Source of the DNA: a virus
Lineage: Duplodnaviria > Heunggongvirae > Uroviricota > Caudoviricetes
DNA length: 17,828 bases
Strand: one strand, 5' to 3'
Virus record (IMG/VR): IMGVR_UViG_2563366803_000003
Under the pieces are notes generated by a model that saw only the letters and a program-made list of their open reading frames with translations, ran no database searches and was not told the DNA's origin. The position numbers and the translations under genes are program-made. Positions within the stretch are counted from its first letter, which is position 1. Each line of letters starts with the position of its first letter. Shown here in pieces: positions 699 to 17,828 of the stretch.

Positions 699-753
699 TG
701 GAGCACCTCAAAAACACCATCATACACTAAATCAGTAAGTTGGCAGCATCACC

Positions 754-1236
754 CAGATAACGTAATATGGTCACTTCACGATTAGATAGCACAGTGACCG
801 TTGAACTATTCGTACTACATTTATTGCTTTTTATATAGTTAAGCGTTTCGCTGGGAAAAAACGTGTATCCGGAGAGGATCATCTGAACGGCATGAAAAAT
901 ATCATTCTGATCATTGCATTTACTGACAAAACCGTTAGCACCAGCTTGTATCGCTCTGCCAGCATAAAAGCATTCTGATTTCGATGATAAAAATAACACT
1001 TTCACTGTGCTCTGGATTTGTTTGATCCTTTTCAGGAAGGTAAAACCGTCTGTTCCGGGCAAGTCTATATCCATAATGATTAAATCAACAGGACGGGTTC
1101 GGAGATAATCGATGGTTATGCGGTAATCATCCGTTTTCAGGACAATCTGCAATTCACTGTTTTTTTGCAACAGAACTTCAATAGACATTCTGATGATAGG
1201 ATGAGTATCCATAATGATCACCGACGTTGGTTTCAT
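754..1236 (-). pseudogene. fimZ: fimZ (LuxR-family response regulator of fimbrial genes), 3' end interrupted by IS1; C-terminal HTH domain missing
   Basis: ORF MKPTSVIIMDTHPIIRMSIEVLLQKNSELQIVLKTDDYRI... receiver domain; reading frame runs into the IS1 terminus at 753 and ends with IS1-encoded residues GDAANLLI; fimZ is the known neighbour of argU. Confidence 0.85.
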
Positions 1237-1419
1237 AGTTACCAGTCTCATAGGAGCGGACAATTTTCCGTTAGGGCGGTAAATTGTACTTTGATACATG
1301 AAAATACGGGTTTTCTTGATTCAGACGCGCAGCGGTGTGCGTTTGTTTGCCGCTATAGCGAAATAAATCAGAAAATCAGACGCGGTCGTTCACTTGTTCA
1401 GCAACCAGATCAAAAGCCA

Positions 1420-4059: not shown

Positions 4060-4220
4060 ACAGCTCCCCGTTTATTATTTATCTCCTCAGCCAGCCGCTG
4101 TGCTTTCAGTGGATTTCTGATAACAGAAAGGCCGGGAAATACCCAGCCTCGCTTTGTAATGGAGTAGACGAAAGTGATCGCGCCTACCCGGATATTATCG
4201 TGAGGATGCGTCATCGCCAT
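4032..4220 (-). CDS. Small lambdoid early protein, 62 aa (lambda orf60a-like by position immediately upstream of exo)
   Basis: ORF overlapping exo start region; GGGGAG upstream of ATG at 4220. Confidence 0.45.
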
Positions 4221-4891
4221 TGCTCCCCAAATACAAAACCAATTTCAGCCAGTGCCTCGTCCATTTTTTCGATGAACTCCGGCACCATCTCGTCAAAACT
4301 CGCCATGTACTTTTCATTCCGCTCAATCACGACATAATGCAGGCCTTCACGCTTCATGCGCGGGTCATAGTTGGCAAAGTACCAGGCATCTTTTCGCGTC
4401 ACCCACATGCTGTACTGCACCTGGGCCATGTAAGCCGATTTTATTGCCTCGAAACCACCGAGCCGGAATTTCATGAAATCCCGGGAGGTAAACGGGCATT
4501 TCAGTTCAAGGCCGTTGCCGTCACTGCATAAACCATCGGGAGAGCAGGCGGTGCGCATACTTTCGTCGCGATAGATGATCGGGGATTCAGCAATATTCAC
4601 GCCGGAAGTGAATTCAAACAGGGTTCTGGCGTCGTTCTCGTACTGTTTTCCCCAGGCCAGCGCCTTAGCATTAACTTCCGGAGCCACACCGGTGCAAACC
4701 TCAGCCAGCAGGGTGTGGAAGTAGGACATTTTCATGTCAGGCCACTTCTTTCCTGAGCGGGGCTTTGCTATCACGTTGTGAACTTCTGAAGCGGTGATGA
4801 CGCCGAGCCGTAATTTGTGCCATGCATCATCCCCCTGTTCGACAGCTCTCACGTCGATCCCGGTACGCTGCAGGATAATGTCCGGTATCAT
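4211..4891 (-). CDS. exo: Lambda-type 5'-3' exonuclease Exo (Red-alpha), 226 aa
   Basis: Translation [65 protein letters not shown]... is near-identical to lambda Exo as recalled; same length. Confidence 0.95.
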
Positions 4892-5673
4892 GCTGCCACC
4901 TTCTGCTCAGTGGCTTTCTGTTTCAGGAATCCAAGAGCTTTCACTGCTTCGGCCTGTGTCATTTCTGACGATGCGCGAATGTCGCGGCGAAATATCTGGG
5001 AACAGAGCGGCAATAAGTCGTCATCCCATGTTTTATCCAGGGCGATCAGCAGAGTGTTAATCTCCTGCATGGTTTCATCGTTAACCGGAGTGATGTCGCG
5101 TTCTGGCTGACGTTCTGCAGTGTATGCAGTATTTTCGACAATGCGCTCGGCTTCATCCTTGTCATAGATACCAGCAAATCCGAAGGCCAGACGGGCACAC
5201 TGAATCATTGTTTTATGCCGTAACATCCGTTTGGGATGCGACTGCCACGGCCCCGTGATTTCTCTGCCTTCGCGGGTTTTGAATGGTTCGCGGCGGCATT
5301 CATCCATCCATTCGGTAACGCAGATCGGATGATTACGGTCCTTGCGGTAAATCCGGCATGTACAGGATTCATTGTCCTGCTCAAAGTCCATGCCATCAAA
5401 CTGCTGGTTTTCATTGATGATGCGGGACCAGCCATCAACGCCCACCACCGGAACAATGCCGTTCTGCTTATCAGGGAAGGCGTAAATTTCTTTCGTCCAC
5501 GGATTAAGGCCGTACTGGTTGGCGACGATCAACAATGCGATGAACTGCGCATCGCTGGCATCACCTTTAAATGCCGTCTGGCGAAGAGTGGTGATCAGTT
5601 CCTGTGGGTCGACAGAATCCATGCCGACACGTTCAGCCAGCTTCCCTGCCAGCGTTGCGAGTGCTGTACTCAT
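4888..5673 (-). CDS. bet: Lambda-type single-strand annealing protein Bet (Red-beta), 261 aa
   Basis: Translation [66 protein letters not shown]... matches lambda Bet; ATGA overlap with exo as in lambda. Confidence 0.95.
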
Positions 5674-5678
5674 CCGTT

Positions 5679-5975
5679 TTATACCTCTGAATCAATATCA
5701 ACCTGGTGGTGAGCAATGGTTTCAACCATGTACCGGATGTGTTCTGCCATGCGCTCCTGAAACTCAACATCGTCATCAAACGCACGGGTAATGGCTTTTT
5801 TGCTGGCCCCGCAGCGTTGCAAATGATCGATGCAGAGTGATTCAAACAGGTGCTGTGGAAGACCTTTTTCCATGTCGTCTGCCAGTTCTGACTCTTTCTC
5901 TTCACGGGCGATCTGCTGGTAGTGACGTGCCCAGCTCAGACCCTCAAGACGATCCTGAATGTAATAAGCGTTCAT
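5679..5975 (-). CDS. gam: Lambda Gam (RecBCD inhibitor), 98-aa GamS-length form
   Basis: Translation [56 protein letters not shown]... matches lambda Gam. Confidence 0.93.
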
Positions 5976-6050
5976 GGCTGAACTCCTGAAAATGGCTGTG
6001 AAAATATCGCCCGCGAAATGCCAGGCTGATTAGGAAAACAGGAAAGGGGA

Positions 6051-6257
6051 TTAGTGATTCAGGCCATTACCGCGTCCGTCGAAAAAAACTTCCACGAGCA
6101 AATCACGGGTATAAGTGCGCTCGATGCCGCGATGCAGATATAGCCGTCCGCGTAAATTAGCTGATGCAGTCCAGGTACCATCTTTGTGTTTGACCAGCAT
6201 TCCTGGCATGACCGCACCTCGATTAACGGTCTGCGTTCCGTAATGTTGATGAACCAT
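6051..6257 (-). CDS. Small early-left protein (68 aa from ATG at 6257 with AGGAG SD), possibly Kil-like host division inhibitor by position next to gam; in-frame upstream extension to 6461 is Arg-rich
   Basis: Strong SD (AGGAGTTTTT-ATG) at the internal start; first ORF downstream of the predicted pL; function assigned by synteny only. Confidence 0.4.
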
Positions 6258-6529
6258 AAAAACTCCTGCCCGTAAGCTGGGCTGCTGAACATATAGAGAC
6301 TTCTGCGCGTATTCAGGCGGTGGATGGCCGCCGGTTGTCATAACTAAGCCGCCTCGTTGAAGCGACTGAGGTATGAGGTGTTGAGTTGATTTCAGCTGGT
6401 CACACCGACGTTCACGCGTCCGTTTCACCCCTCGCACTCCCCGGAGCCTGCCGAAATTCAAGCTGCGGATCTAAGCGGTCATCGCAACGGTGAATCAGGT
6501 GGTTGCCGTATCGTTGTGTTGTTGCGACA

Positions 6530-6600
6530 TGGTGATAATAGCTATTGCTATTGGTGGTATCAATACTTATTGCTATTGATTGATGTGTTTTGATATTAAC
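6530..6600 (-). promoter_or_regulatory. Predicted pL/oL: minus-strand -35 TTGATA (+ coords 6558-6563) and -10 TATTAT (6535-6540) with 17-bp spacer, overlapped by repeated GCTATTG operator-like motifs
   Basis: Hexamers and spacing read directly; motif TTGCTATTG (6545-6553, 6570-6578) is shared with the cI-cro intergenic region. Confidence 0.4.
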
Positions 6601-6712
6601 TGTTTGATAGCAAAAAGAATTAATTTTGTGACTTGCATCGCATAGCGATAACTGAAGGGAGGTTGTGGTGGTTTTTCGAACGGTTTGTGTGATGAGGGGA
6701 GGGGACAAAAGA

Positions 6713-6745
6713 AAACCCGGCACGGTGGCCGGGACGTTTTATTTC
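6713..6745. terminator. Bidirectional rho-independent terminator (stem cccggc...gccggg, flanked by T-runs on both strands); likely end of the cI operon (tImm-like)
   Basis: aaaacccggcacggtggccgggacgttttatttc immediately after the stop of the 6739-7251 gene. Confidence 0.65.
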
Positions 6746-7251
6746 AAAGAAAAATTATGACTAGCGTATCTTGGAAGAAATTCATATAGTGTTAATGTCT
6801 TAACGCCGTGAGAAGCAGCAGCATCCGGGATCATTATTCTTTTTTTAGGTTTGCCACCGGATGGTTTCTCATGGGTAATAATAGTATATCCATGTGTCAT
6901 CGCATGGGCTATTAAAAAAGCATCTGCTTTTTCATGGCTTGCAAAATCAAACTTTGCCTTTTCGGTAACATCTAATTTAGTTGACCAATTTATTAACTTT
7001 GCATAATTTTCTATTGAACTATGCTCATCTTCGAAGAATGATGATGGTAACTCTTCTTTAATCCATTTACACAATGGATCATCTTTTGCACATAGTTCTT
7101 TTTTTACAGCATTAATGCTATAAATCAGACCATTCATGTGTAAAGCGAGAAGAAAATCCCAAAATATTTTGCAATAATTGAAGTTATATGCAAAGTTTTT
7201 TGCCTCTATGAAGACATTACTATCAATTAAGAATTTTCCATTATGAATCAT
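6739..7251 (-). CDS. DUF4411-type PIN-like putative nuclease (170 aa); candidate effector of a two-gene defense/toxin module
   Basis: Size, N-terminal FLIDSNVFI strand with conserved Asp and later acidic residues fit a PIN-like fold; ATGA start/stop overlap with upstream metallopeptidase gene; AT-rich composition. Confidence 0.6.
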   Translation of the reverse strand: MIHNGKFLIDSNVFIEAKNFAYNFNYCKIFWDFLLALHMNGLIYSINAVKKELCAKDDPLCKWIKEELPSSFFEDEHSSIENYAKLINWSTKLDVTEKAKFDFASHEKADAFLIAHAMTHGYTIITHEKPSGGKPKKRIMIPDAAASHGVKTLTLYEFLPRYASHNFSLK

Positions 7252-8387
7252 AGAGATTCTCGTTTTTTATAAAATTCAACAACTGTATCTGCTTTTACAT
7301 TTAGCAGTACGCCTGCTTCCCTTAATGGTAATTGTTGAGACATTGCTTTGGAAATTATTATATTCGTAAGTTTTGGACTGTTACGAACAGGTAATGTGTT
7401 AAAGAAAGAACCACCATTAGATTCTTTTTTGGGCTTATTGTAAGCTTGATCTTTAATTATCTCCAAAGTGTTTCTTTCTATCAAATCTAATTGTAACGCT
7501 TTGATTGCACAAGCGAAATCACTAACCTTAAATAACTTAGAAACCTCTTTTACTCGATAATAATTATTATCGCTGGATGCATTAAGCCAGAAAGATTTGA
7601 AGAGATTATCAGGCATTAAGATTTCAGCAGCAACTTTATTACAAAAAGATTCTATGTTTTTTTCTGTGTCCCACCCAGAGACTCCATCGACTCCAAGCCA
7701 AAGATGAGCCACCTCATGAAATAATGTAAATACCTGCGCAGATAACGCGTCCGAGCTATTTACAAAAATGATCGGAGCAACGCTATCAGATATACAGAAA
7801 CCACGAAACTCTCGCGTGTCAAGTTTTCTTTTATTATTATTACCCACAACACCATTCTTGAAAACTAATACGCCAGTGTCTTCTATTAGTTTTGCCACTT
7901 TAGAAAAATAGCTCTCAAAAGTGACATTTTTTATCTCTTTTTGTATATCAAAATGTATTGTGTTTGCTATGTCTGTAGCAACAACCTTATAATTTAATTT
8001 TCTATTAAATTTAAATTTACCAATAAAATCGAGTGGATCATCATTACCATTTTCTCTTAAATAGTCTTTGTACCACTCAAGTTTATATTCTATATCATAG
8101 TAAACATCAAAAAAATCTTTTCCTAACTCACGGCTATTTATAGCTTGCCTTAAGTCAGGGATCTTGGGTTTGGCTGGAGTTGGTGGCGTTTCAAGAAATA
8201 AAAAACCGAAAGGGATTCCTCCAATTTTTGCCAGTTTTTCTGCTGCGGATTTACTTACCACTCCGTTAAGAAATTTATTAATCTTTTTGGGCATGACTTG
8301 GTCAGCAAGAGTTTCGATAGAAACTCCTTGAGAATTTGCTATCCAATCAATCATCTTCCTAGACAATTGAAATTCAACCGCTGCCAT
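7248..8387 (-). CDS. HTH + ImmA/IrrE-family (COG2856/M78-like) zinc metallopeptidase, 379 aa
   Basis: HExxH motif in FTLFHEVAHLWLG; N-terminal HTH-like segment (IDWIANSQGVSIETLADQV); AGGTGA SD upstream of ATG at 8387; translationally coupled to DUF4411 gene. Confidence 0.7.
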   Translation of the reverse strand: MAAVEFQLSRKMIDWIANSQGVSIETLADQVMPKKINKFLNGVVSKSAAEKLAKIGGIPFGFLFLETPPTPAKPKIPDLRQAINSRELGKDFFDVYYDIEYKLEWYKDYLRENGNDDPLDFIGKFKFNRKLNYKVVATDIANTIHFDIQKEIKNVTFESYFSKVAKLIEDTGVLVFKNGVVGNNNKRKLDTREFRGFCISDSVAPIIFVNSSDALSAQVFTLFHEVAHLWLGVDGVSGWDTEKNIESFCNKVAAEILMPDNLFKSFWLNASSDNNYYRVKEVSKLFKVSDFACAIKALQLDLIERNTLEIIKDQAYNKPKKESNGGSFFNTLPVRNSPKLTNIIISKAMSQQLPLREAGVLLNVKADTVVEFYKKRESL

Positions 8388-8516
8388 GTTATCACCTAGT
8401 TAAAAAAAACTATTATTCAACAATTATTGTTGTGCACCTGATAGCTAACGTCAAGCCTAATTTATTGCCTTACTACAGTAAGCTGAAAAGCGAAGTGCAT
8501 AATTTTGTTCTGATTT

Positions 8517-9209
8517 CTACCCATGCTTTCTATATGTCTGCGGCATGCTCCCGATGACTTTCCCGAAGATGAACACGCGGTTCATCTCGTCTTTCTCGAT
8601 CGGGTCCCACGGTGAGTAGCTCTTGTTATCAGAGATAACCAGCAGCTTATCCTTCATCATTTGCAGGCGCTTTACATGGGCGGTGTCGTCATACAGAAAC
8701 GCATAGATACCATCACCGTCGAAAGATTTAACAGTGATATCAACGAACAGAAGATCACCTGGTTCGATCGTTCCTGACATGCTGTCACCGCGTACGTTAA
8801 TGATGCGGATATTTTCTGCCTTCCTGCCATCGAACATGTGACGAGCATCGTCAAACGAGTACTCAACCGAGCGTAGAACTTCTACAAACTCACGGTTGAT
8901 GACTCCCGGCCCGGCACTCACTTCTATATCAAGAACGTCAATCTTGAAGTATTTGGGATGGTTGGCAGTAGGCTTCCCTAATTGTTGACCGTCATTTCTC
9001 ATCGGGCCTATGCCTGATGAGAGCCACTCTGTTCGAACACCCAATGCATTAGCTATTTCAACAATTTTTGTTGAGCCGCGCGCGTTGCCGCTTGTCAGTC
9101 TCCAGATTGTGGGTTGAGCTACCCCAGACGCCTTTGCAAGAGCGCCTTGAGACATTCCAGATTGTTCCATCGCTAGGTTTAAGCGATCAGCAAGAGTTTC
9201 TTTTTTCAT
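8517..9209 (-). CDS. cI: cI-type prophage repressor (N-terminal XRE HTH + C-terminal S24/LexA-like autopeptidase), about 230 aa, leaderless
   Basis: HTH segment LADRLNLAMEQSGMSQGALAKASGVAQPTIWRL; S24 peptidase signature around GDSMSGTIEPGDLLFVD with downstream Lys (HVKRL); ATG at 9209 lies 7 nt after a -10 hexamer. Confidence 0.85.
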   Translation of the reverse strand: MKKETLADRLNLAMEQSGMSQGALAKASGVAQPTIWRLTSGNARGSTKIVEIANALGVRTEWLSSGIGPMRNDGQQLGKPTANHPKYFKIDVLDIEVSAGPGVINREFVEVLRSVEYSFDDARHMFDGRKAENIRIINVRGDSMSGTIEPGDLLFVDITVKSFDGDGIYAFLYDDTAHVKRLQMMKDKLLVISDNKSYSPWDPIEKDEMNRVFIFGKVIGSMPQTYRKHG

Positions 9210-9319
9210 AAGTTTTAATTTATACGCTTGCGTATTGATGGTCAAAACACGTTTTGCTATTGTTATGATTAATACGCATTGCTATTATTTATTCATTGCA
9301 ATACCAATAGGAATTGATA
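9210..9319. promoter_or_regulatory. Divergent immunity control region. Predicted pRM on minus strand (-35 TTGACC at + 9240-9245, -10 TAAATT at 9217-9222, leaderless cI) and pR on plus strand (-35 TTGTTA 9260-9265, -10 TATTAT 9283-9288); operator-like repeats TTGCTATT and palindromes
   Basis: Hexamers and 17-bp spacings read directly; motif shared with 6540-6580. Confidence 0.5.
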
Positions 9320-9547
9320 ATGACAAATCAAACCATTCAACTCGCAATCAGTATTACAGGTAGTCAAAAACGACTGGCAGATCTATGCGGTGTAGCCCAA
9401 CCCACTGTTTGGCGTTGGCTACACGGTGGCGGAATTGATGCCCGCTATGTAATGAAAATTGTCTCAGCCACTGGTGGAAAGATTAAACCAGCAGATATTC
9501 GTCCCGACCTCGCACCATTGTTTAACGCGAGTAATTCTGCCGCCTAA
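9320..9547 (+). CDS. cro: Cro-like HTH regulator of the YdaS family (about 75 aa)
   Basis: HTH segment GSQKRLADLCGVAQPTVWRWL; AGGAA SD 6 nt upstream of ATG 9320; divergent from cI. Confidence 0.7.
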   Translation: MTNQTIQLAISITGSQKRLADLCGVAQPTVWRWLHGGGIDARYVMKIVSATGGKIKPADIRPDLAPLFNASNSAA

Positions 9548-9571
9548 ACTGCGGCGTTAACTGATAAGGCA

Positions 9572-10117
9572 ATGACTATGCAACCACTTACATACCAACA
9601 GACTAGCGGATTTAGCCCGACTGTGGTGATAAATCGTTCTCAAACAAAACAAGCTCCAGGCCACGAAAAAATCCGTGATGCCGTCCGCGCCTGGTCGGCT
9701 GCAGATAATCAGGATGTTGTTGCCGCACTCATTGTGAATGAGTATCGGGAGCAGGGCGGCGGCACCATCGATTTCCCTGATGATGTCAGCCGTGCACGCC
9801 AGAAGCTGTTCCGCTTCCTCGATAACAAATTCGATTCTGAAAAATACCGAAATAACGTGCGTGAACTGACCCCGGCAATTCTGGCGGTACTACCGCTGGA
9901 ATATCGCGGTTACCTGGTTGAGCAGGATAGCTTTATGGCTAGGTTGGCTGAAATGGAAAAGGAACTCAGTGAGGCAAAACAGGCTGTCATTCTCAACGCA
10001 CCACGCCACCAGAAACTGAAGGAGATGAGTGAAGGCATTGTGTCGATGTTTCGAGTGGACCCGGATCTGGCTGGTCCATTGATGGCGATGGTCACCACCA
10101 TGCTGGGGGCAATATGA
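9572..10117 (+). CDS. YdaT-family protein (181 aa), occupying the cII position
   Basis: Recalled resemblance (..EYREQGGG.., ..LTPAILAVLP..) to Rac YdaT-type proteins; always paired with YdaS-type cro; position between cro and O. Confidence 0.5.
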   Translation: MTMQPLTYQQTSGFSPTVVINRSQTKQAPGHEKIRDAVRAWSAADNQDVVAALIVNEYREQGGGTIDFPDDVSRARQKLFRFLDNKFDSEKYRNNVRELTPAILAVLPLEYRGYLVEQDSFMARLAEMEKELSEAKQAVILNAPRHQKLKEMSEGIVSMFRVDPDLAGPLMAMVTTMLGAI

Positions 10118-10203
10118 CAGGTTCAAAAATGGCGAAAGTCGGTCTGCGGGAACAGAACCGACTTTCAGGTGCAAATCGTAACACACTCATTGCGGGAGGA
10201 ATT

Positions 10204-11133
10204 ATGGCAAACACTGCTGAGATATTCAATTTTCCAGTGCCGGATGCGGCACAAAAGGAGCCGCGCGTGGCAGATCTCGATGATGGTTATACGCGCATTG
10301 CAAATGAGTTGCTGGAAGCTGTGATGCTGGCCGGATTAACACAGCACCAGCTTCTGGTCTTCCTGGCTGTCATGCGCAAAACATATGGCTTTAATAAAAA
10401 ACTGGATTGGGTGAGCAACGAGCAACTTTCCGAGTTGACCGGGATATTGCCGCACAAGTGTTCTGCTGCAAAAAGTGTTCTGGTAAAGCGTGGGATTTTT
10501 ATTCAGAGCGGGCGGAATATCGGCATCAATAATGTGGTCAGTGAATGGTCAACATTACCCGAATCGGGTAAGAAAAATAAAGTTTACCTGAAAGAGGTAA
10601 ATTTACCTGAATCAGGTAAGAAAAGTTTACCTAAATCAGGTAAAGGCGTTTACCCGAATCAGGTAAACACAAAAGACAAACTAACAAAAGACAATATAAA
10701 ACCTTTATCGTCCGAGAATTCTGGCGAATCCTCTGACCAGCCAGAAAACGATCTTCCTGTGGTGAAACCGGATGCTGCAATTCAGAGCGGCAGCAAGTGG
10801 GGGACAGCAGAAGACCTGACCGCCGCAGAGTGGATGTTTGACATGGTGAAGACCATCGCGCCATCAGCCAGAAAACCGAATTTTGCAGGGTGGGCTAACG
10901 ATATCCGCCTGATGCGTGAACGTGATGGACGTAACCACCGCGACATGTGCGTGCTGTTCCGCTGGGCATGCCAGGACAACTTCTGGTCCGGTAACGTGCT
11001 GAGTCCGGCTAAACTCCGCGACAAGTGGACCCAGCTCGAAATCAACCGTAACAAGCAACAGGCTGGCGTGACAGCCAGAAAACCAAAACTCGACCTGACA
11101 AACACTGACTGGATTTACGGGGTGGATTTATGA
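10204..11133 (+). CDS. O: Lambda O-type replication initiator (about 309 aa from ATG 10204 with GGGAGG SD)
   Basis: N-terminus MANTAEIFNFP...VADLDDGYTRIANELLEAV...LLVFLAVMRKTYGFNK resembles lambda O N-terminal domain; internal iteron array. Confidence 0.85.
   Translation: MANTAEIFNFPVPDAAQKEPRVADLDDGYTRIANELLEAVMLAGLTQHQLLVFLAVMRKTYGFNKKLDWVSNEQLSELTGILPHKCSAAKSVLVKRGIFIQSGRNIGINNVVSEWSTLPESGKKNKVYLKEVNLPESGKKSLPKSGKGVYPNQVNTKDKLTKDNIKPLSSENSGESSDQPENDLPVVKPDAAIQSGSKWGTAEDLTAAEWMFDMVKTIAPSARKPNFAGWANDIRLMRERDGRNHRDMCVLFRWACQDNFWSGNVLSPAKLRDKWTQLEINRNKQQAGVTARKPKLDLTNTDWIYGVDL
10555..10710 (+). repeat. Phage origin of replication: five 17-bp palindromic iterons TTACC(C/T)GAATC(A/G)GGTAA (10555-10571, 10584-10600, 10603-10619, 10627-10643, 10649-10665) followed by an A-rich tract
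   Basis: Direct repeats read in sequence inside the O gene, as in ori-lambda. Confidence 0.8.
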
Positions 11134-11831
11134 AAAACATCGCCGCACAGATGGTTAACTTTGACCGTGAGCAGATGCGTCGGATCGCCAACAACATGCC
11201 GGAACAGTACGACGAAAAGCCGCAGGTACAGCAGGTAGCGCAGATCATCAACGGTGTGTTCAGCCAGTTACTGGCAACTTTCCCGGCGAGCCTGGCTAAC
11301 CGTGACCAGAATGAACTGAACGAAATCCGCCGCCAGTGGGTTCTGGCTTTCCGGGAAAACGGGATCACCACAATGGAACAGGTTAACGCTGGAATGCGCG
11401 TAGCCCGTCGGCAGAATCGACCATTCCTGCCATCACCCGGGCAGTTTGTCGCCTGGTGCCGGGAAGAAGCATCTGTTAACGCCGGGCTGCCAAACGTCAG
11501 CGAGCTGGTTGATATGGTTTACGAGTATTGCCGGAAGCGTGGCCTGTATCCGGATGCAGAGTCTTATCCGTGGAAATCGAACGCGCATTACTGGTTGGTT
11601 ACCAACTTGTACCAGAACATGCGGGCCAATGCGCTGACTGACGCGGAATTACGGCGCAAGGCTGCCGATGAACTGACCTGTATGACAGCGCGAATTAACC
11701 GTGGTGAGACGATACCTGAACCAGTAAAACAACTTCCTGTTATGGGCGGTAGACCTCTAAATCGTGCACAGGCTCTGGCGAAGATCGCAGAAATTAAAGC
11801 TAAGTTCGGACTGAAAGGAGCAATTGTATGA
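11130..11831 (+). CDS. P: Lambda P-type replication protein (DnaB helicase loader), 233 aa
   Basis: Translation MKNIAAQMVNFDREQMRRIANNMPEQYDEKPQVQQVAQIINGVFSQLLATFPASLANRDQNELNEIRRQW... matches lambda P; ATGA overlap with O. Confidence 0.95.
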   Translation: MKNIAAQMVNFDREQMRRIANNMPEQYDEKPQVQQVAQIINGVFSQLLATFPASLANRDQNELNEIRRQWVLAFRENGITTMEQVNAGMRVARRQNRPFLPSPGQFVAWCREEASVNAGLPNVSELVDMVYEYCRKRGLYPDAESYPWKSNAHYWLVTNLYQNMRANALTDAELRRKAADELTCMTARINRGETIPEPVKQLPVMGGRPLNRAQALAKIAEIKAKFGLKGAIV

Positions 11832-12130
11832 CGGGCAAAGAGGCAATTATTCATTACCTGGGGACGCATAAGAGCTTCTGTGCACAGGACGTTGCCGCGG
11901 TAACAGGCGCAACCGTAACCAGCATAAATCAGGCTGCGGCTAAAATGGCGCGGGCAGGAATCCTGGTCGTTGATGGTAAGGTCTGGCGAACGGTGTATTA
12001 CCGGTTCGCTACCAGAGAAGAACGGGAAGGAAAGGTGAGCACGAATCTGATTTTTAAGGAGTGTCGCCAGAGTGCCGCGATGAAACGGGTATTGAGGGTA
12101 TATAAAAGAACATCAATGGGAACACAATGA
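11828..12130 (+). CDS. ren: Ren (Rex exclusion-escape protein), 100 aa
   Basis: Translation MTGKEAIIHYLGTH.SFCA.DVAA.TGATVTSINQAAAKMARAG... matches lambda Ren; ATGA overlap with P. Confidence 0.9.
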   Translation: MTGKEAIIHYLGTHKSFCAQDVAAVTGATVTSINQAAAKMARAGILVVDGKVWRTVYYRFATREEREGKVSTNLIFKECRQSAAMKRVLRVYKRTSMGTQ

Positions 12131-12197
12131 TGAAACAGGTGAGTTGAGTTCAAACTGTAGTACAATTCTCTCCAGTTTGAACAGGAAAGAATATGCT

Positions 12198-12530
12198 ATG
12201 AACCCTTATATTTATCTTGGTGGTGCAATACTTGCAGAGGTCATTGGTACAACCTTAATGAAGTTTTCAGAAGGTTTTACACGGTTATGGCCATCTGTTG
12301 GTACAATTATTTGTTATTGTGCATCATTCTGGTTATTAGCTCAGACGCTGGCTTATATTCCTACAGGGATTGCTTATGCTATCTGGTCAGGAGTCGGTAT
12401 TGTCCTGATTAGTTTACTGTCATGGGGATTTTTCGGCCAACGGCTGGACCTGCCAGCCATTATAGGCATGATGTTGATTTGTGCCGGTGTGTTGGTTATT
12501 AATTTATTGTCACGAAGCACACCACATTAA
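12198..12530 (+). CDS. emrE: EmrE small multidrug-resistance efflux transporter, 110 aa (prophage moron)
   Basis: Translation MNPYIYLGGAILAEVIGTTLMKFSEGFTRLWPSVGTIICYCASFWLLAQTLAYIPTGIAYAIWSGVGIVLISLLSWGFFGQRLDLPAIIGMMLICAGVL... matches EmrE; AGGAAAG SD. Confidence 0.95.
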   Translation: MNPYIYLGGAILAEVIGTTLMKFSEGFTRLWPSVGTIICYCASFWLLAQTLAYIPTGIAYAIWSGVGIVLISLLSWGFFGQRLDLPAIIGMMLICAGVLVINLLSRSTPH

Positions 12531-12550
12531 AATAATTTGTTTCTAAACGA

Positions 12551-12590
12551 CTAAAATATGGAGGCTCTTATATTTATATGAGCCTCGTTT
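12551..12590 (+). terminator. Rho-independent terminator downstream of emrE (stem gaggctc...gagcctc followed by T-rich tract)
   Basis: Hairpin 12551-12576, T-run 12577-12590. Confidence 0.7.
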
Positions 12591-12784
12591 TATGCTTTTT
12601 GTTAATGTCTTTATTTTTTATGTATTCTTTTGTGCTTTCAAGATTATGGCGTAAGAAAATTGCAATACGATTATTGTTGTATATTCAAGATAATGTGACC
12701 TTAATTGTCTTTTTAAATAAAAATTAAACAAAAATTATATCCCACCACTAAGGTTTATAAAAGCATACGTTAGCAGGTGTCACC

Positions 12785-13624
12785 ATGAAAAAAGCCATAG
12801 CATATATGCGATTTTCATCACCAGGTCAGATGTCTGGTGACTCATTAAACCGACAGAGAAGACTTATTGCTGAATGGTTAAAGGTAAATAGTGATTATTA
12901 TCTTGATACCATAACATATGAAGATTTAGGATTAAGTGCATTCAAAGGAAAGCATGCACAATCAGGAGCTTTTTCGGAATTTTTAGATGCTATAGAGCAT
13001 GGTTATATATTGCCAGGAACTACATTGTTAGTTGAAAGTCTGGACAGACTTTCAAGAGAAAAAGTCGGTGAAGCGATTGAACGTCTGAAATTGATTTTGA
13101 ATCACGGTATTGATGTTATAACTCTTTGCGACAATACAGTCTATAATATTGACTCTTTGAATGAGCCATATTCATTAATAAAAGCCATACTTATAGCACA
13201 AAGGGCAAATGAAGAAAGCGAGATAAAGTCAAGTCGGGTTAAATTATCATGGAAGAAAAAACGGCAGGATGCAATGGAATCAGGTACGATTATGACGGCG
13301 TCTTGTCCGAGATGGCTCTCCTTAGATGACAAAAGAACGGCTTTTGTTCCAGACCCCGACAGGGTGAAAACTATTGAGCTAATTTTTAAACTCAGGATGG
13401 AAAGGCGCTCATTGAATGCAATAGCCAAGTATTTAAATGATCATGCTGTAAAGAATTTCTCAGGAAAAGAAAGTGCATGGGGACCTTCTGTAATTGAAAA
13501 ATTATTAGCGAATAAAGCTCTGATAGGTATATGCGTACCTTCATATCGTGCAAGAGGGAAAGGGATAAGTGAAATCGCTGGCTATTATCCCAGAGTTATA
13601 TCAGATGATTTGTTTTACGCTGTA
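12785..13624 (+). pseudogene. ybcK: ybcK-like serine recombinase, truncated after about 280 codons by IS1
   Basis: N-terminal resolvase-type catalytic domain (AIAYMRFSSPGQMSGDSLNRQRR... with catalytic Ser), reading frame runs into IS1 left terminus at 13625. Confidence 0.8.
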
Positions 13625-13639
13625 GGTAATGACTCCAAC

Positions 13640-14143
13640 TTATTGATAGTGTTTTATGTTCAGATAATGCCCGATGACTTTGTCATGCAGCTCCACCGAT
13701 TTTGAAAACGACAGCGACTTCCGTCCCAGCCGTGCCAGGTGCTGCCTCAGATTCAGGTTATGCCGCTCAATTCGCTGCGTATATCGCTTGCTGATTACGT
13801 GCAGCTTTCCCTTCAGGCGGGATTCATACAGCGGCCAGCCATCCGTCATCCATATCACCACGTCAAAGGGTGACAGCAGGCTCATAAGACGCCCCAGCGT
13901 CGCCATAGTGCGTTCACCGAATACGTGCGCAACAACCGTCTTCCGGAGACTGTCATACGCGTAAAACAGCCAGCGCTGGCGCGATTTAGCCCCGACATAG
14001 CCCCACTGTTCGTCCATTTCCGCGCAGACGATGACGTCACTGCCCGGCTGTATGCGCGAGGTTACCGACTGCGGCCTGAGTTTTTTAAGTGACGTAAAAT
14101 CGTGTTGAGGCCAACGCCCATAATGCGGGCTGTTGCCCGGCAT
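13640..14143 (-). CDS. insB: IS1 InsB (the longer 194-aa ORF in the track is the out-of-frame upstream extension used for InsAB' frameshifting)
   Basis: Same frame and sequence as copy A InsB, with one amino-acid difference (H vs R). Confidence 0.93.
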
Positions 14144-14337
14144 CCAACGCCATTCATGGCCATATCTATGATTTTCTGGTGCGTACCGGGTTGAGAAGCG
14201 GTGTAAGTGAACTGCAGTTGCCATGTTTTACGGCAGTGAGAGCAGAGATAGCGCTGATGTCCGGCGGTGCTTTTGCCGTTACGCACCACCCCGTCAGTAG
14301 CTGAACAGGAGGGACAGCTGATAGAAACAGAAGCCAC
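14062..14337 (-). CDS. insA: IS1 InsA
   Basis: Identical protein to copy A InsA. Confidence 0.95.
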
Positions 14338-14392
14338 TGGAGCACCTCAAAAACACCATCATACACTAAATCAGTAAGTTGGCAGCATCACC

Positions 14393-14512
14393 CTCACTAA
14401 AGCAGGTTTCTGGCTGGATGATGCTCAGGTCGTTGATTACCGCGTTGTGAAGATGCCTGTTACCAAAGGTGGGAGGCTGGAACTGACCATCACCGAAATG
14501 GGGAATGAATGA
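14393..14512 (+). pseudogene. rusA: 3' fragment (last 39 codons) of rusA Holliday-junction resolvase, fused directly to the IS1 terminus
   Basis: Translation [39 protein letters not shown] equals the RusA C-terminus as recalled; no start codon or N-terminal part. Confidence 0.8.
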
Positions 14513-14649: not shown

Positions 14650-14734
14650 AGTCAGAGATAACAATCAACTAATACTGTTTTATTGATTTTTGCTTGTAAT
14701 TGGCGTTCTGGTCTGATTTTTGTGGAGTAAGTTG

Positions 14735-15118
14735 ATGCGTGATATTCAGATGGTTCTTGAGCGTTGGGGAGCGTGGGCGGCTAATAATCATGAAGATGTG
14801 ACCTGGTCGTCCATTGCCGCCGGTTTTAAGGGATTAATTCCTTCAAAAGTAAAATCTCGCCCGCAATGTTGTGACGATGACGCGATGATCATTTGCGGGT
14901 GCATGGCCCGTCTGAAAAAGAACAACAGCGATTTGCACGATTTATTAGTAGATTATTATGTAGTCGGTATGACATTCATGTCACTGGCAGGTAAGCATTG
15001 CTGCTCTGATGGTTATATCGGGAAAAGGTTACAAAAGGCTGAGGGCATAATTGAAGGGATGTTAATGGCATTAGATATCCGGTTAGAGATGGATATCGTT
15101 GTTAATAACTCTAATTAA
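14735..15118 (+). CDS. quuD: Late-gene antiterminator Q (QuuD-like), 127 aa
   Basis: Translation [24 protein letters not shown]...[16 protein letters not shown]... with Cys-rich zinc-binding motif; GGAG SD 7 nt upstream. Confidence 0.85.
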
Positions 15119-15143
15119 TACGCCAATTATTTACTAAAAGTTA

Positions 15144-15298
15144 TTAAAAATGGGGCGTTGAAACGCCCCCAAAAATAAAGGGTAATATATAACAGAAGGT
15201 TTGTATAGTTAGAAGCAAGGTTGTGCTTCTAAAGGAAGTGGCTTGAGGGAGCCACTTATATGTTGGGGAGGCAAAGCCTCCCACAACATATCTTTTAG
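15144..15298. promoter_or_regulatory. Q-downstream region with three hairpins (15151-15170, 15238-15256, 15257-15290). Likely contains pR'/qut and a tR'-like terminator on + strand (15257-15298) and a convergent terminator for the porin gene on minus strand (15144-15170)
   Basis: Stem-loops read directly; the 15151-15170 hairpin is followed by a T-run on the minus strand, the 15257-15290 hairpin by CTTTT on the plus strand. Confidence 0.4.
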
Positions 15299-15306
15299 TA
15301 ATCAAA

Positions 15307-16389
15307 TTAGAACTGGTAAACCATACCTACAGCAACGATATCATCGGTAGCAACGCCAGATGCTTTCGTGAAATCGCTCTTATCAATCAGGTTGATTTTG
15401 TAGTCAACAAAAGTGGACATATTTTTGTTGAAGTAATAGGTTGCACCTACATCAACATATTCAACCAGGTCCTGATCACCCCAAACACCCAAGTCTTTTC
15501 CTTTAGAATGCAGGTAAGCAACGGATGGACGCAGGCCGAAGTCGAACTGATATTGTGCAACAGCTTCGAAGTTTTGTGCTTTGTTGGCAATATGGTTATT
15601 ACCAAAAACAGTCATGTTCTGGGTTTCAGAATAGGTGGTGGCCAGATAGATGTTGTTCGCATCATATTTCAGACCAGCTGCCCATACTTCAGCATTTTGA
15701 CCAGAAGCATTCAGACCGTTGTTACCGTAGATAACCTGATTATTAGTGCGATCAGATTTAGCATAGGTTGCACCTACACCGAATCCTTCATACTCATAAG
15801 TAGTGGAGAAACCGAAACCATCACCATTAGCTTCAGTTACGTCAGTGCGGTCATTTTTACCCTGATACTGAGCAGCAAAGTTCAGACCATCAACCAGACC
15901 AAAGAAGTCGTTGTTACGATAAGTTGCAACACCAGTGGTGCGACCAGTCATGAACACATCTGTTTGAGTCCAAGTGTCACCACCGAATTCTGGCAGGACG
16001 TCAGTCCACGCACCGATGTCGTATGCTACACCGTAGTTACGGCCGTAATCGATGGAGCCGTAGTCACCGAATTTCAGGCCAGCGAAGGCAAGACGGGTTT
16101 TATCTTTGGAGGAACCTTGAGATTCAGCGCGGTTGCCTTTGAATTCATATTCCCACTGACCGAAACCAGTCAGTTGATCGTTGATTTGGGTTTCACCTTT
16201 GAAGCCAAGACGGGCATAAGTAGTATCACCATCATCTGCATCATTAGAGGAGAAGTAGTGCTTAGCATTAACTTTCCCGTACAGATCCAGCTTGTTACTG
16301 TCTTTATTATAAATTTCAGCTGCCTGAGCAGACATCGCCATCAGTACTGATGCAGCTACAGCAGAAATTGCCACTGTTAATTTTTTCAT
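15307..16389 (-). CDS. nmpC: Outer-membrane general porin of the NmpC/OmpD/OmpC family, intact (360 aa with signal peptide)
   Basis: Signal peptide [23 protein letters not shown], beta-barrel porin sequence ending ...VGMVYQF; opposite orientation to the phage late genes (moron). Confidence 0.9.
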
Positions 16390-16978
16390 CGTGAGCCCTT
16401 TTTTTTGAACTATTATTAAAAAATGATGTCACTGCGCGATAAATATTCATCTAATCAATGTGATTATTTCAAGATGTAAGTTTTAGTTTCTCATTTAATT
16501 TGTGAAGTAGATCTCTATTTTTATCTGAACTTTTTCTATCGAAACCTATTTATGGCTCTTATTTGAACAAAAATAAACCTATTAGCTAATTTATATTAAT
16601 GGCTGTTATTTATGGGGGGGTCTATAATTCGATGGTTTAATTTAAATTAACTAAAAATAACGCCGGAAATTATTTATTGGTTATTTGTTGAGGTTTTCTT
16701 ATGTATTTGTGGTGGTGTTTTGAACACTCGGTAGCATTCTCATAAATATCATTCAGTGGTTTACGTACGTAAAAAATTGGTTATGCTGTTAAGAGTGGTT
16801 ACTTCGTCACACAGCTTAAACCCGCCGTCGAGCTGGTTTTTCCATTTTTTGAGTCTCGATATTAGCTGATAACTCAATACCTGAGTTATTCACTGACTCC
16901 GAGTCTGTTACGTTTCTGCTTTTTTGCGATACGTTGTATTCCCTCAATTTACACCCGCTTTGTCTGCGAGGTGGGGTT

Positions 16979-17194
16979 ATGAAATCCATGGATAAGTTAA
17001 CAACGGGTGTCGCCTATGGCACCTCAGCAGGTAGTGCCGGTTACTGGTTTTTACAGCTGCTCGATAAAGTCACGCCCTCACAGTGGGCAGCAATAGGTGT
17101 GCTGGGTAGCCTGGTATTTGGCCTGCTGACGTACCTGACAAACCTTTATTTCAAGATTAAAGAAGATAAGCGCAAGGCTGCGAGAGGTGAATAA
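16979..17194 (+). CDS. essD: Class II holin / pinholin of the S21 family (71 aa) with dual-start motif MKSMDK
   Basis: Translation [71 protein letters not shown]; two TM segments; stop overlaps endolysin start (TAATG). Confidence 0.85.
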
Positions 17195-17599
17195 TGCCTC
17201 CATCATTACGAAAAGCCGTTGCTGCTGCTATTGGTGGCGGAGCAATTGCTATAGCATCAGTGTTAATCACTGGCCCAAGTGGTAACGATGGTCTGGAAGG
17301 TGTCAGCTACATACCATACAAAGATATTGTTGGTGTATGGACCGTATGTCACGGGCATACAGGAAAAGACATCATGCTCGGTAAAACGTATACCAAAGCA
17401 GAATGCAAAGCACTCTTGAATAAAGACCTTGCCACTGTCGCCAGACAAATTAACCCATACATCGAAGTCGATATACCGGAAACAACGCGCGGCGCTCTTT
17501 ACTCATTCGTTTACAACGTGGGTGCTGGCAATTTCAGAACATCGACGCTTCTTCGCAAAATAAACCAGGGCGATATCAAAGGCGCATGTGATCAGTTAC
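17194..17599 (+). pseudogene. rrrD: SAR-endolysin (RrrD/R21-like lysozyme) truncated near codon 135 by IS2 insertion
   Basis: N-terminal signal-anchor-release segment [20 protein letters not shown]; lysozyme core; frame continues into the IS2 terminus giving a chimeric tail [16 protein letters not shown]. Confidence 0.8.
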
Positions 17600-17828
17600 T
17601 AGACTGGCCCCCTGAATCTCCAGACAACCAATATCACTTATTTAAGTGATAGTCTTAATACTAGTTTTTAGACTAGTCATTGGAGAACAGATGATTGATG
17701 TCTTAGGGCCGGAGAAACGCAGACGGCGTACCACACAGGAAAAGATCGCAATTGTTCAGCAGAGCTTTGAACCGGGGATGACGGTCTCCCTCGTTGCCCG
17801 GCAACATGGTGTAGCAGCCAGCCAGTTA
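17600..17828 (+). mobile_element. IS2 (IS3 family), terminal part only; continues beyond window
   Basis: Terminus tagactggccccctgaatctccagacaaccaatatcacttaa and downstream orfA (insC) start match IS2 as recalled. Confidence 0.85.
17691..17828 (+). CDS. insC: IS2 OrfA (InsC) transposase N-terminal part, partial at window end
   Basis: Translation [46 protein letters not shown]. Confidence 0.85.

Follow-up and report, generated by a model that had tools for sequence, protein, structure and literature searches.

A putative ori-lambda-type replication origin with its own repeat class in the O gene of a DLP12-like lambdoid prophage

The stretch of virus DNA analyzed here (the window; 17,828 nucleotides) carries a prophage that is lambdoid and DLP12-like, lies next to argU, and has an early region that matches that of the isolated Bievrevirus phage 4A7. 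Positions 10555-10705 are very likely the replication origin of this prophage, built like ori-lambda. The origin appears to be an ordinary feature of a very common Escherichia coli prophage, and it differs from lambda in the repeat that O is predicted to recognize. It has the traits of the ori-lambda type. The host gene is a PF04492 gene, and the repeats follow right after its N-terminal domain. There are at least four direct repeats with dyad symmetry, a strand-asymmetric A+T tract, and constraint on the DNA itself. The repeats appear to be inherited with the N-terminal domain of O, and the C-terminal domain with the helicase-loading partner. The features are listed in Table 1.

Table 1. Features of the putative origin and of the genes and sites associated with it (positions in the window)
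Feature	Positions	Strand	Description
Repeat (iteron) 1	10555..10571	.	TTACCCGAATCGGGTAA; farthest copy from the A-rich tract, 29 nt ahead of copy 2
Repeat 2	10584..10600	.	TTACCTGAAAGAGGTAA; most degenerate copy, 2 mismatches to consensus
Repeat 3	10603..10619	.	TTACCTGAATCAGGTAA; 0 mismatches
Repeat 4	10627..10643	.	TTACCTAAATCAGGTAA; 1 mismatch
Repeat 5	10650..10666	.	TTACCCGAATCAGGTAA; abuts the A-rich tract
A-rich, low-G+C tract	10667..10705	+	39 nt, directly 3' of repeat 5; presumed DNA-unwinding element
O gene (replication initiator)	10204..11133	+	309 aa from ATG 10204; PF04492, E = 8.5e-34
P gene (lambda-type helicase loader)	11130..11831	+	PF06992 (Phage_lambda_P), E = 7.7e-62
Promoter-like site, candidate pR	9260..9288	+	TTGTTA-17-TATTAT with upstream TG; consensus match alone

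The array consists of five dyad-symmetric repeats of 17-19 nt each and spans positions 10555-10666. With one flanking base per side, the unit is a 19-mer with the consensus TTTACCYGAATCAGGTAAA. Compared with its own reverse complement, each 19-mer agrees at 14-16 of 19 positions. The dyad of copy 1 is equal to its own reverse complement at 16 of 17 positions, and copy 2 has AAAGA at its centre in place of AATCA and is a poor palindrome. The whole window was searched on both strands with the consensus of the first-pass annotation, allowing up to three mismatches. The five sites of the array were the sole matches. Each was matched on both strands because the unit is palindromic, and further isolated copies at up to three mismatches, for example near the promoter, were found nowhere else in the window. 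The iterons thus do not disappear on careful alignment, as five sites are present where dinucleotide-preserving shuffles gave a chance expectation of 0.10 matches per window, and 0 of 200 shuffles reached 10.

The first-pass annotation had described five consensus copies spaced about 24 bp apart in the middle of the O coding sequence. Five copies are indeed present, but only three fit the consensus exactly, with one mismatch in copy 4 and two in copy 2. The mean spacing is 23.75, but the start-to-start distances of 29, 19, 24, and 23 are irregular. The 29 nt from copy 1 to copy 2 correspond to 2.76 helical turns and are atypical. As copy 2 is a poor palindrome and the spacing of copy 1 is atypical, not all five copies may be bound equally. 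The location in O was confirmed. The array occupies codons 118-155 of the 309-codon gene, the copies beginning at gene nucleotides 352, 381, 400, 424, and 447 (counted from ATG 10204), and it is also mid-gene in a longer, 339-codon ORF.

This longer ORF arises because the open frame of O reaches upstream to 10114, giving 339 aa. The Pfam PF04492 (Phage_rep_O) match covers residues 51-145 of the long ORF, and the repeats begin at residue 148. The alignment with lambda O begins at residue 31 of the long ORF, the start of phi80 gp15 aligns with 10204, and a GGGAGG motif is found at 10194-10199. It appears that O probably starts at 10204 rather than at 10114, and that the annotated start is 30 codons too long. 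The annotation of the O start codon could be corrected accordingly. Numbered from 10204, residues 1-308 align to profile positions 1-317/318 of PHROG 277. The N-terminal domain, which tracks the repeat type, comprises residues 1-117. From about residue 170 on (SSENSGESS onward), the protein is ~99% identical to lambda O. The P gene begins within the stop codon region of O, its start overlapping the O stop codon. P is a P-like helicase loader (PHROG 109) and is identical to lambda P at 227 of 233 residues (97%).

The A-rich tract holds two 15-nt direct repeats, ACAAAAGACAAACTA and ACAAAAGACAATATA. Over the 45 nt past the last repeat, A+T makes up 73%, and A alone accounts for 56% on the + strand. 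A 40-nt interval from 10660 has the lowest G+C (0.275) and the highest AT skew (0.72) in a profile of 10100-11200. The A-rich stretch that had been noticed after the repeats is therefore present, at 10667-10703/5. It aligns with the 38-bp high-AT region of lambda and was judged homologous to it. A ACACAAAAGA...ACAAAAGA-like motif is found 3' of the repeats in 11 of 12 other O-family genes, from lambda to the Mannheimia phage. The exception is phi80, which has no such tract.

The genes around O and P are those of a lambdoid early region. Upstream of O are an S24/HTH repressor gene, a cro-like gene (Pfam YdaS), and a cII-like gene (Pfam YdaT, PHROG 163). Downstream of P are ren, an SMR transporter gene (emrE), and a serine recombinase gene (ybcK). 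Cargo genes adjoin the repressor gene. The element occupies the argU site used by DLP12, as indicated by a tRNA-Arg(tct) at 1479-1555 and the adjoining integrase. The same module was also found at a different integration site. The candidate pR sits between the repressor gene and the cro-like gene and would transcribe cro-cII-O-P across the origin. Its position agrees with that of the annotated pR of P22, 933W, and phi80. In a scan around O, promoter and terminator counts were not above those of shuffles, and individual sites are therefore leads only. A candidate oop-like element (antisense RNA) is located just upstream of the origin. An Rfam scan of the whole window identified the tRNA-Arg alone, with no curated family for this candidate.

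In order, the copies use frames 0, 2, 0, 0, and 2 and encode LPESGK, VYLKEV, LPESGK, LPKSGK, and VYPNQV, respectively. This has a bearing on another source for the periodicity, namely a peptide (LPESGK, VYLKEV, and so on) that recurs along the flexible linker of O under selection on the protein, with the DNA repeat as a mere by-product. The repeats are coding, the segment is of low complexity and rich in Lys, Ser, Gly, and Pro, and copy-number variants come in in-frame units of 24 or 48 nt, all of which would suit a peptide. However, the peptide is not repeated, because the same DNA unit is read in different frames (LPESGK against VYPNQV), and the dyad symmetry of the units would be meaningless for a peptide. 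The use of two reading frames therefore indicates that selection acts on the DNA.

Variation among relatives points in the same direction. A scan of viral contigs gave 80 loci of the window's N-terminal type, with protein identities of 83-100%, and allele fractions were taken from an alignment of 82 same-type sequences, 71 of them unique. Minor-allele fractions at codon positions 1, 2, and 3 were 0.018, 0.018, and 0.020 in the repeats, 0.027, 0.026, and 0.108 in the N-terminal domain, and 0.097, 0.102, and 0.079 in the spacers. Across the 82 sequences, repeat bases are about fivefold less variable than spacers or synonymous sites. Within the repeats, third codon positions show the same conservation as first and second ones, and are fivefold more conserved than third positions elsewhere in the gene. 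Permutation gave p = 5e-5 for repeat third positions against N-terminal-domain third positions, and p = 5e-5 for repeats against spacers. The repeats are under purifying selection at the DNA level. The protein-repeat explanation was rejected on the evidence of reading frame and codon position, and hardly any credence is left to it.

The number of copies varies among the relatives. At up to three mismatches, five copies are present in 68 of the 80 loci, the range is 4-9, and the variation is in frame. One relative (L035) is missing a 24-nt repeat unit at copy 3, which indicates that copy number can change in frame. The AT-proximal spacings of 19/24/23 are almost invariant in the 80 loci. This nearly constant core agrees with the result from Stx phages that the four AT-proximal iterons form the well-bound core (PMC7466680). 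Copy 5 is nearly invariant across the 82 relatives. Two bases of the window are minority alleles, G at 10566 in copy 1 (A in most relatives) and T at 10632 in copy 4 (C in most relatives). In a sliding comparison of the window with Klebsiella phage GZ7, there is a modest excess of identity over the repeats (0.87-0.93 against ~0.78), which is not decisive by itself. Natural variants with 4-9 repeats could be used to study the contribution of the distal iterons.

The iterons had also been said to define the specificity of O. Sequence comparison favors this, as repeat type and N-terminal domain stay together across mosaic junctions. The junction is located at ~10707-10714, just past the A-rich tract, where the window goes from about 50-70% to ~100% identity with lambda and PhiR12_1. 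In these two phages the C-terminal domain and P are ~95-100% identical to those of the window, whereas the N-terminal domains and repeats differ. The same repeats are kept at 64 loci where the window's N-terminal type is joined to a lambda-like C-terminus and P. They are also kept at 10 loci and in phage GZ7, where this N-terminal type is joined to another C-terminus and the loader is DnaC-like. It appears that the repeats and the O N-terminal domain are co-inherited as a module, and that TTTACCYGAATCAGGTAAA represents a specificity class distinct from lambda's TCCCTCAAAACGAGGGA. When N-terminal identity was compared with dyad-aligned repeat similarity over 11 O types, a Mantel-type test gave a positive but weak correlation (r = 0.355, p = 0.059), which is treated as suggestive only.

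The range of repeat types was explored through an unsupervised search for the most repeated 17-mer in 13 O-family genes (the window's, that of the same-type phage 4A7, and 11 others). In 12 of the 13, the search located an array at gene nucleotides ~336-460. For lambda, 933W, and phi80, these arrays fall on the iterons or binding sites of the annotated records, and the array in P22 lies within the annotated rep_origin. The repeats of the thirteenth gene, from PhiR12_1, were missed by the 17-mer search. Read by eye, this gene has four TGTCAC-N7-GTGACA repeats at the same place. A spacing of 20/24/23 is common to lambda, P22, the Providencia phage, HK544, and PhiR12_1. Each O type has a repeat sequence of its own. 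The consensus sequences are ATCCCTCAAAACGNGGGA (lambda), TGTCTCNAAGTTAGAGACA (mEpX1), TTAGCCAAGNCAGCTAA (HK544), TTAGCNGAAGTTGCTAA (SEN34), TTCCCGAAAACGGGAA (phi80), TCCCGAAAAAGTAGGGA (Mannheimia phage), TTTACCNAATCGGTAAA (P22), and TTTACCGAAACGGTAAA (Providencia phage). The window's class is nearest to those of P22 and the Providencia phage, with which it has the arms and the centre in common.

The way in which such an origin would work can be proposed from its parts. Derepression would lead to rightward transcription from the cro-proximal promoter, and O and P would be expressed. Dimers of the O N-terminal domain would bind the five dyad 19-bp repeats. On a model taken from Stx phages, the four AT-proximal copies would be the core and the distal fifth copy an accessory site. 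The nucleoprotein complex would then destabilize the neighboring A-rich tract. Finally, the lambda-like C-terminal domain of O would recruit P bound to host DnaB, and replication would start. From the biochemistry of lambda, and for binding also that of Stx phages (PMC7466680), we infer that O would bind the repeats, that the tract would unwind, that P-DnaB would be recruited, and that the origin could fire in this strain.

Origin firing in this strain is plausible, because O is identical to 4A7 O at 304 of 309 residues, P is undamaged, and another strain carries a module with 99.7% identity. The intact O-P pair of the first-pass annotation is thus upheld, with P at full length. The N-terminal domain of O differs from that of 4A7 at residue 15 alone, and the repeat-encoded linker is identical. 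Near-identical O genes (98.3% at the nucleotide level) are found in the isolated phages 4A7, Lambda_4C10, 1W, 3W, Perceval, and the PhiR series. The region 4065-13624, which includes the repressor gene, cro, cII, O, P, and ren, is 99.66% identical to a prophage of strain SCU-152 and shows no disruption.

These matches weigh against a reading in which the iterons are true origin iterons by descent and are nonetheless silent, in a decaying DLP12-like remnant where O and P are unexpressed or an element is missing. This reading draws on two IS1 copies in the window, a loss of ~3.2 kb relative to SCU-152, and late genes that are located outside the window. The K-12 prophage at this site is known to be defective. 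The undisrupted region, the full-length P, and an O so close to that of an isolated phage speak for the contrary, and the two repeat positions that differ from 4A7 vary within the family anyway. The nin region of lambda is dispensable. A silent origin is considered unlikely.

The window contains two directly repeated IS1 copies, at 1-754 and 13640-14393. Compared with SCU-152, the second copy stands in place of ~3.2 kb (the 3' portion of ybcK through nin), just downstream of the replication module and outside it. The pair brackets argU, int, the recombination genes, cI, cro, cII, O, the origin, P, ren, emrE, and a ybcK that is truncated. If the two copies recombined, a lambda-dv-like circle of ~13.6 kb would be set free, and the segment could therefore be maintained or amplified. 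It is only a slight chance that the origin maintains or amplifies the IS1-bracketed segment as an autonomous or transposable unit, beyond its role in phage growth, or that it is activated in trans by the O of another prophage. If it were so, the 13.6-kb circle would carry a complete lambda-dv-like replicon together with a tRNA gene and an efflux gene. The O of one induced prophage could also fire the origin of a defective copy, and many genomes have 2-3 copies.

The preferred reading, an ori-lambda-like origin carried by a widespread prophage, can be set beside the distribution of the module. The segment 10204-10720, which holds the N-terminal domain and the origin, is present at a coverage of at least 80% in 2,297 of 5,426 complete E. 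coli genomes (42%). There are up to three copies per genome, mostly 95-99% identical to the window. The O/origin class is also present in at least 15 deposited phage genomes. The records of 4A7, GZ7, and SCU-152 have O (or a "replication protein") annotated and no origin or iterons, and a full-text search of the searchable literature gave no match to the repeat motif. As the records carry no origin or iteron label and the motif is absent from the searchable literature, the repeats appear to represent a new, unannotated specificity class of a kind of origin that is itself thoroughly known. Current understanding of lambdoid replication is unchanged by it. As a marker for the origin in one of the commonest E. 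coli prophage replication modules, the repeat class is of value for annotation. From the repeat sequence and the boundary at ~10707-10714, replication-specificity groups of co-resident prophages may be predictable, with regard to both activation and exclusion.

Exclusion could even be the main role of the repeats. They would then be a decoy array that titrates O and excludes, or is incompatible with, phages of the same class, rather than an active origin. Plasmid-borne lambda iterons with oop do inhibit phages of the lambda class (PMC3349717). The window's origin class is very common, with 2,870 occurrences in 2,453 E. coli genomes and up to three copies per genome, and the candidate oop-like element would also fit. 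In lambda, however, such inhibition is a side consequence of a working origin and not an alternative to it, and the full set of origin components (A-rich tract, O, and P) is conserved here. A role mainly as a decoy is rather improbable.

The likeness to ori-lambda proposed in the first-pass annotation was borne out by the position in the gene, the 20/24/23-like spacing, and a shared, homologous A-rich tract. Ori-lambda consists of four 18-bp iterons and a 38-bp high-AT sequence within O, at 39034-39160 (PMC3349717). In NC_001416, this segment is likewise inside O, just past the N-terminal domain, with dyad repeats of ~18-19 bp. Within the lambda gene, the annotated iterons begin at nucleotides 349, 369, 393, and 416 and are spaced 20/24/23, and the arrays begin at codon 117 in lambda (nucleotide 349) and codon 118 in the window (nucleotide 352). 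The window's counterparts of lambda iterons 1-4 are therefore copies 2-5, spaced 19/24/23. Copy 1 is additional, lies distally, and adds 30 nt (10 aa). The A-rich tract of lambda (ACACAAAAGAC...ACAAAAGA) is homologous to that of the window, and the DNA to its right and the O C-terminal domain are ~99-100% identical. In contrast, the lambda repeats (TCCCTCAAAACGAGGGA) and the window's (TTACCYGAATCRGGTAA) are completely different in sequence, with arms TCCCTC/GAGGGA in lambda and TTACCY/RGGTAA in the window. The N-terminal domains of O are about 45-48% identical. The window falls outside the specificity class of lambda, 434, and 933W.

Additional distal iterons are also known from Stx phages. 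Phages 933W and P27 have six iterons, with the extra ones in frame and on the side away from the AT tract, as in the window, and they have the lambda-type P in common with it. Their iterons and N-terminal domain are of the lambda class, unlike those of the window, and their extra iterons are a 39-nt duplication of two units, whereas only one copy has been added in the window, at 29 nt. In footprinting, the four AT-proximal iterons of the six were bound best, and the distal iterons are auxiliary yet required for replication (PMC7466680).

The closest classical repeat is that of the P22 gene 18 origin, TTTACCGAATCGGTAAA (BK000583, rep_origin 32840-32984). O and gp18 proteins differ according to the specificity of the origin, and gene 18 of P22 carries four repeats of its own (PMC8022706). 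The window has five. The outer arms (TTTACC/GGTAAA) and the centre (GAATC) are common to both. P22 has a spacing of 20/24/23 and an A-rich tract of the same kind, and the N-terminal domain of gp18 is 59% identical to the window's, among the nearest of the classical phages. The dyad of the window is 2 bp longer than the 17-bp dyad of P22, with one extra C/G per half-site, and cross-recognition is therefore doubtful. P22 gp18 also has a different C-terminal domain, and its partner is the DnaB-type helicase gp12 rather than P. The window falls outside the P22 gene 18 specificity class.

The phages 4A7 and Lambda_4C10 (both Bievrevirus) and Klebsiella phage GZ7 share the window's repeat class and its five-copy layout of 29/19/24/23. 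In GZ7, copy 1 is degenerate, and this module of N-terminal domain and repeats is joined to a different O C-terminus and a DnaC-like loader. Phage 4A7 has the gene order of the window, cI-cro-cII-O-P-ren-SMR transporter-recombinase, and its repeats differ from the window's at two positions, 10566 and 10632.

The origin region of the window (10204-10720) is 100% identical in the prophage of E. coli SCU-152 (locus L013, NZ_CP051698, 1625-22517). That prophage is integrated beside icd rather than argU and its integrase differs from the window's. Because an identical origin is found at icd together with a different integrase, the immunity-replication block moves from one integration module to another. 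Natural variants of this origin class were seen in the origin region of four IMG/VR contigs. One has four repeats (L035), another has two extra 24-nt repeat units (L083), and a third has reached nine repeats through 48-nt duplications (L089). The fourth, L072, carries a 15-nt duplication within the A-rich tract.

The O gene that contains the origin is usually annotated from the ATG at 10114 as a protein of 339 aa, as in the records of SCU-152 and of 4A7, an isolated Bievrevirus phage with the same origin class. However, the alignments of lambda O, phi80 gp15, the O protein of Klebsiella phage GZ7, and the PHROG 277 profile all start at the ATG at 10204, and GGGAGG lies upstream of it at 10194-10199. 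On these alignments and this motif, the O protein is probably 309 aa long.

Two IS1 copies, 99.6% identical to each other, flank the entire early region and with it the origin. The left copy abuts a response-regulator gene (727-1299, minus strand) that neighbours argU, and has probably truncated this gene. The right copy replaces approximately 3.2 kb of the nin region and cuts ybcK short, to 306 aa in the window vs. 508 codons in SCU-152. The features identified in and around these copies are listed below.

Features of the window outside the repeat array
Feature	Coordinates	Strand or orientation	Remarks
IS1, left copy	1-754	direct, relative to right copy	InsA/InsB Pfam matches
M78 peptidase protein gene (ImmA/IrrE-type), 379 aa	within 6739-8387	minus	adjoins repressor
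DUF4411 protein gene, 170 aa	within 6739-8387	minus	adjoins repressor
Candidate oop-like antisense RNA	10118-10229	minus	between cII-like gene and O
IS1, right copy	13640-14393	direct, relative to left copy	InsA/InsB Pfam matches
Q-family antiterminator gene	14720-15118		right of IS1
OmpC/NmpC-type porin gene	15307-16389	opposite to Q-family gene
Phage-21-type holin gene and lysozyme gene	within 14720-17649		right of IS1

The M78 peptidase protein gave weak PADLOC matches to the capP and RmrA models, and for this reason the peptidase and DUF4411 genes may together form a module for defence or one of toxin-antitoxin-like type. The position that this cargo occupies beside the repressor showed no recognisable N-like antiterminator gene. 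To the right of IS1, 14720-17649 has a late-control and lysis layout like that of DLP12, the prophage at the argU site, with the porin as cargo.

The genes at the cro and cII positions (9314-10117) match the Pfam families "YdaS toxin" and "YdaT toxin"; in PHROGs and the phage records the first is classed as a Cro-like repressor and the second as a CII-like activator. They are separated by only 24 nt, too short a gap to hold a lambda-style nutR/tR1. At 181 aa the cII-like protein is as long as phi80 cII, and its gene aligns with the phi80 gene at the 3' end.

The candidate oop-like RNA has a promoter-like site, TTGAAT-17-CATAAT (10229 to 10201), followed by a strong hairpin and U-run (-24.6 kcal/mol, z = -4.3). 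A T-to-C change in 4A7 would give a G-U wobble in a minus-strand RNA and a mismatch in a plus-strand one. Rfam contained no family matching the candidate. In phi80, an annotated oop homologue, M3 RNA, occupies the same place.
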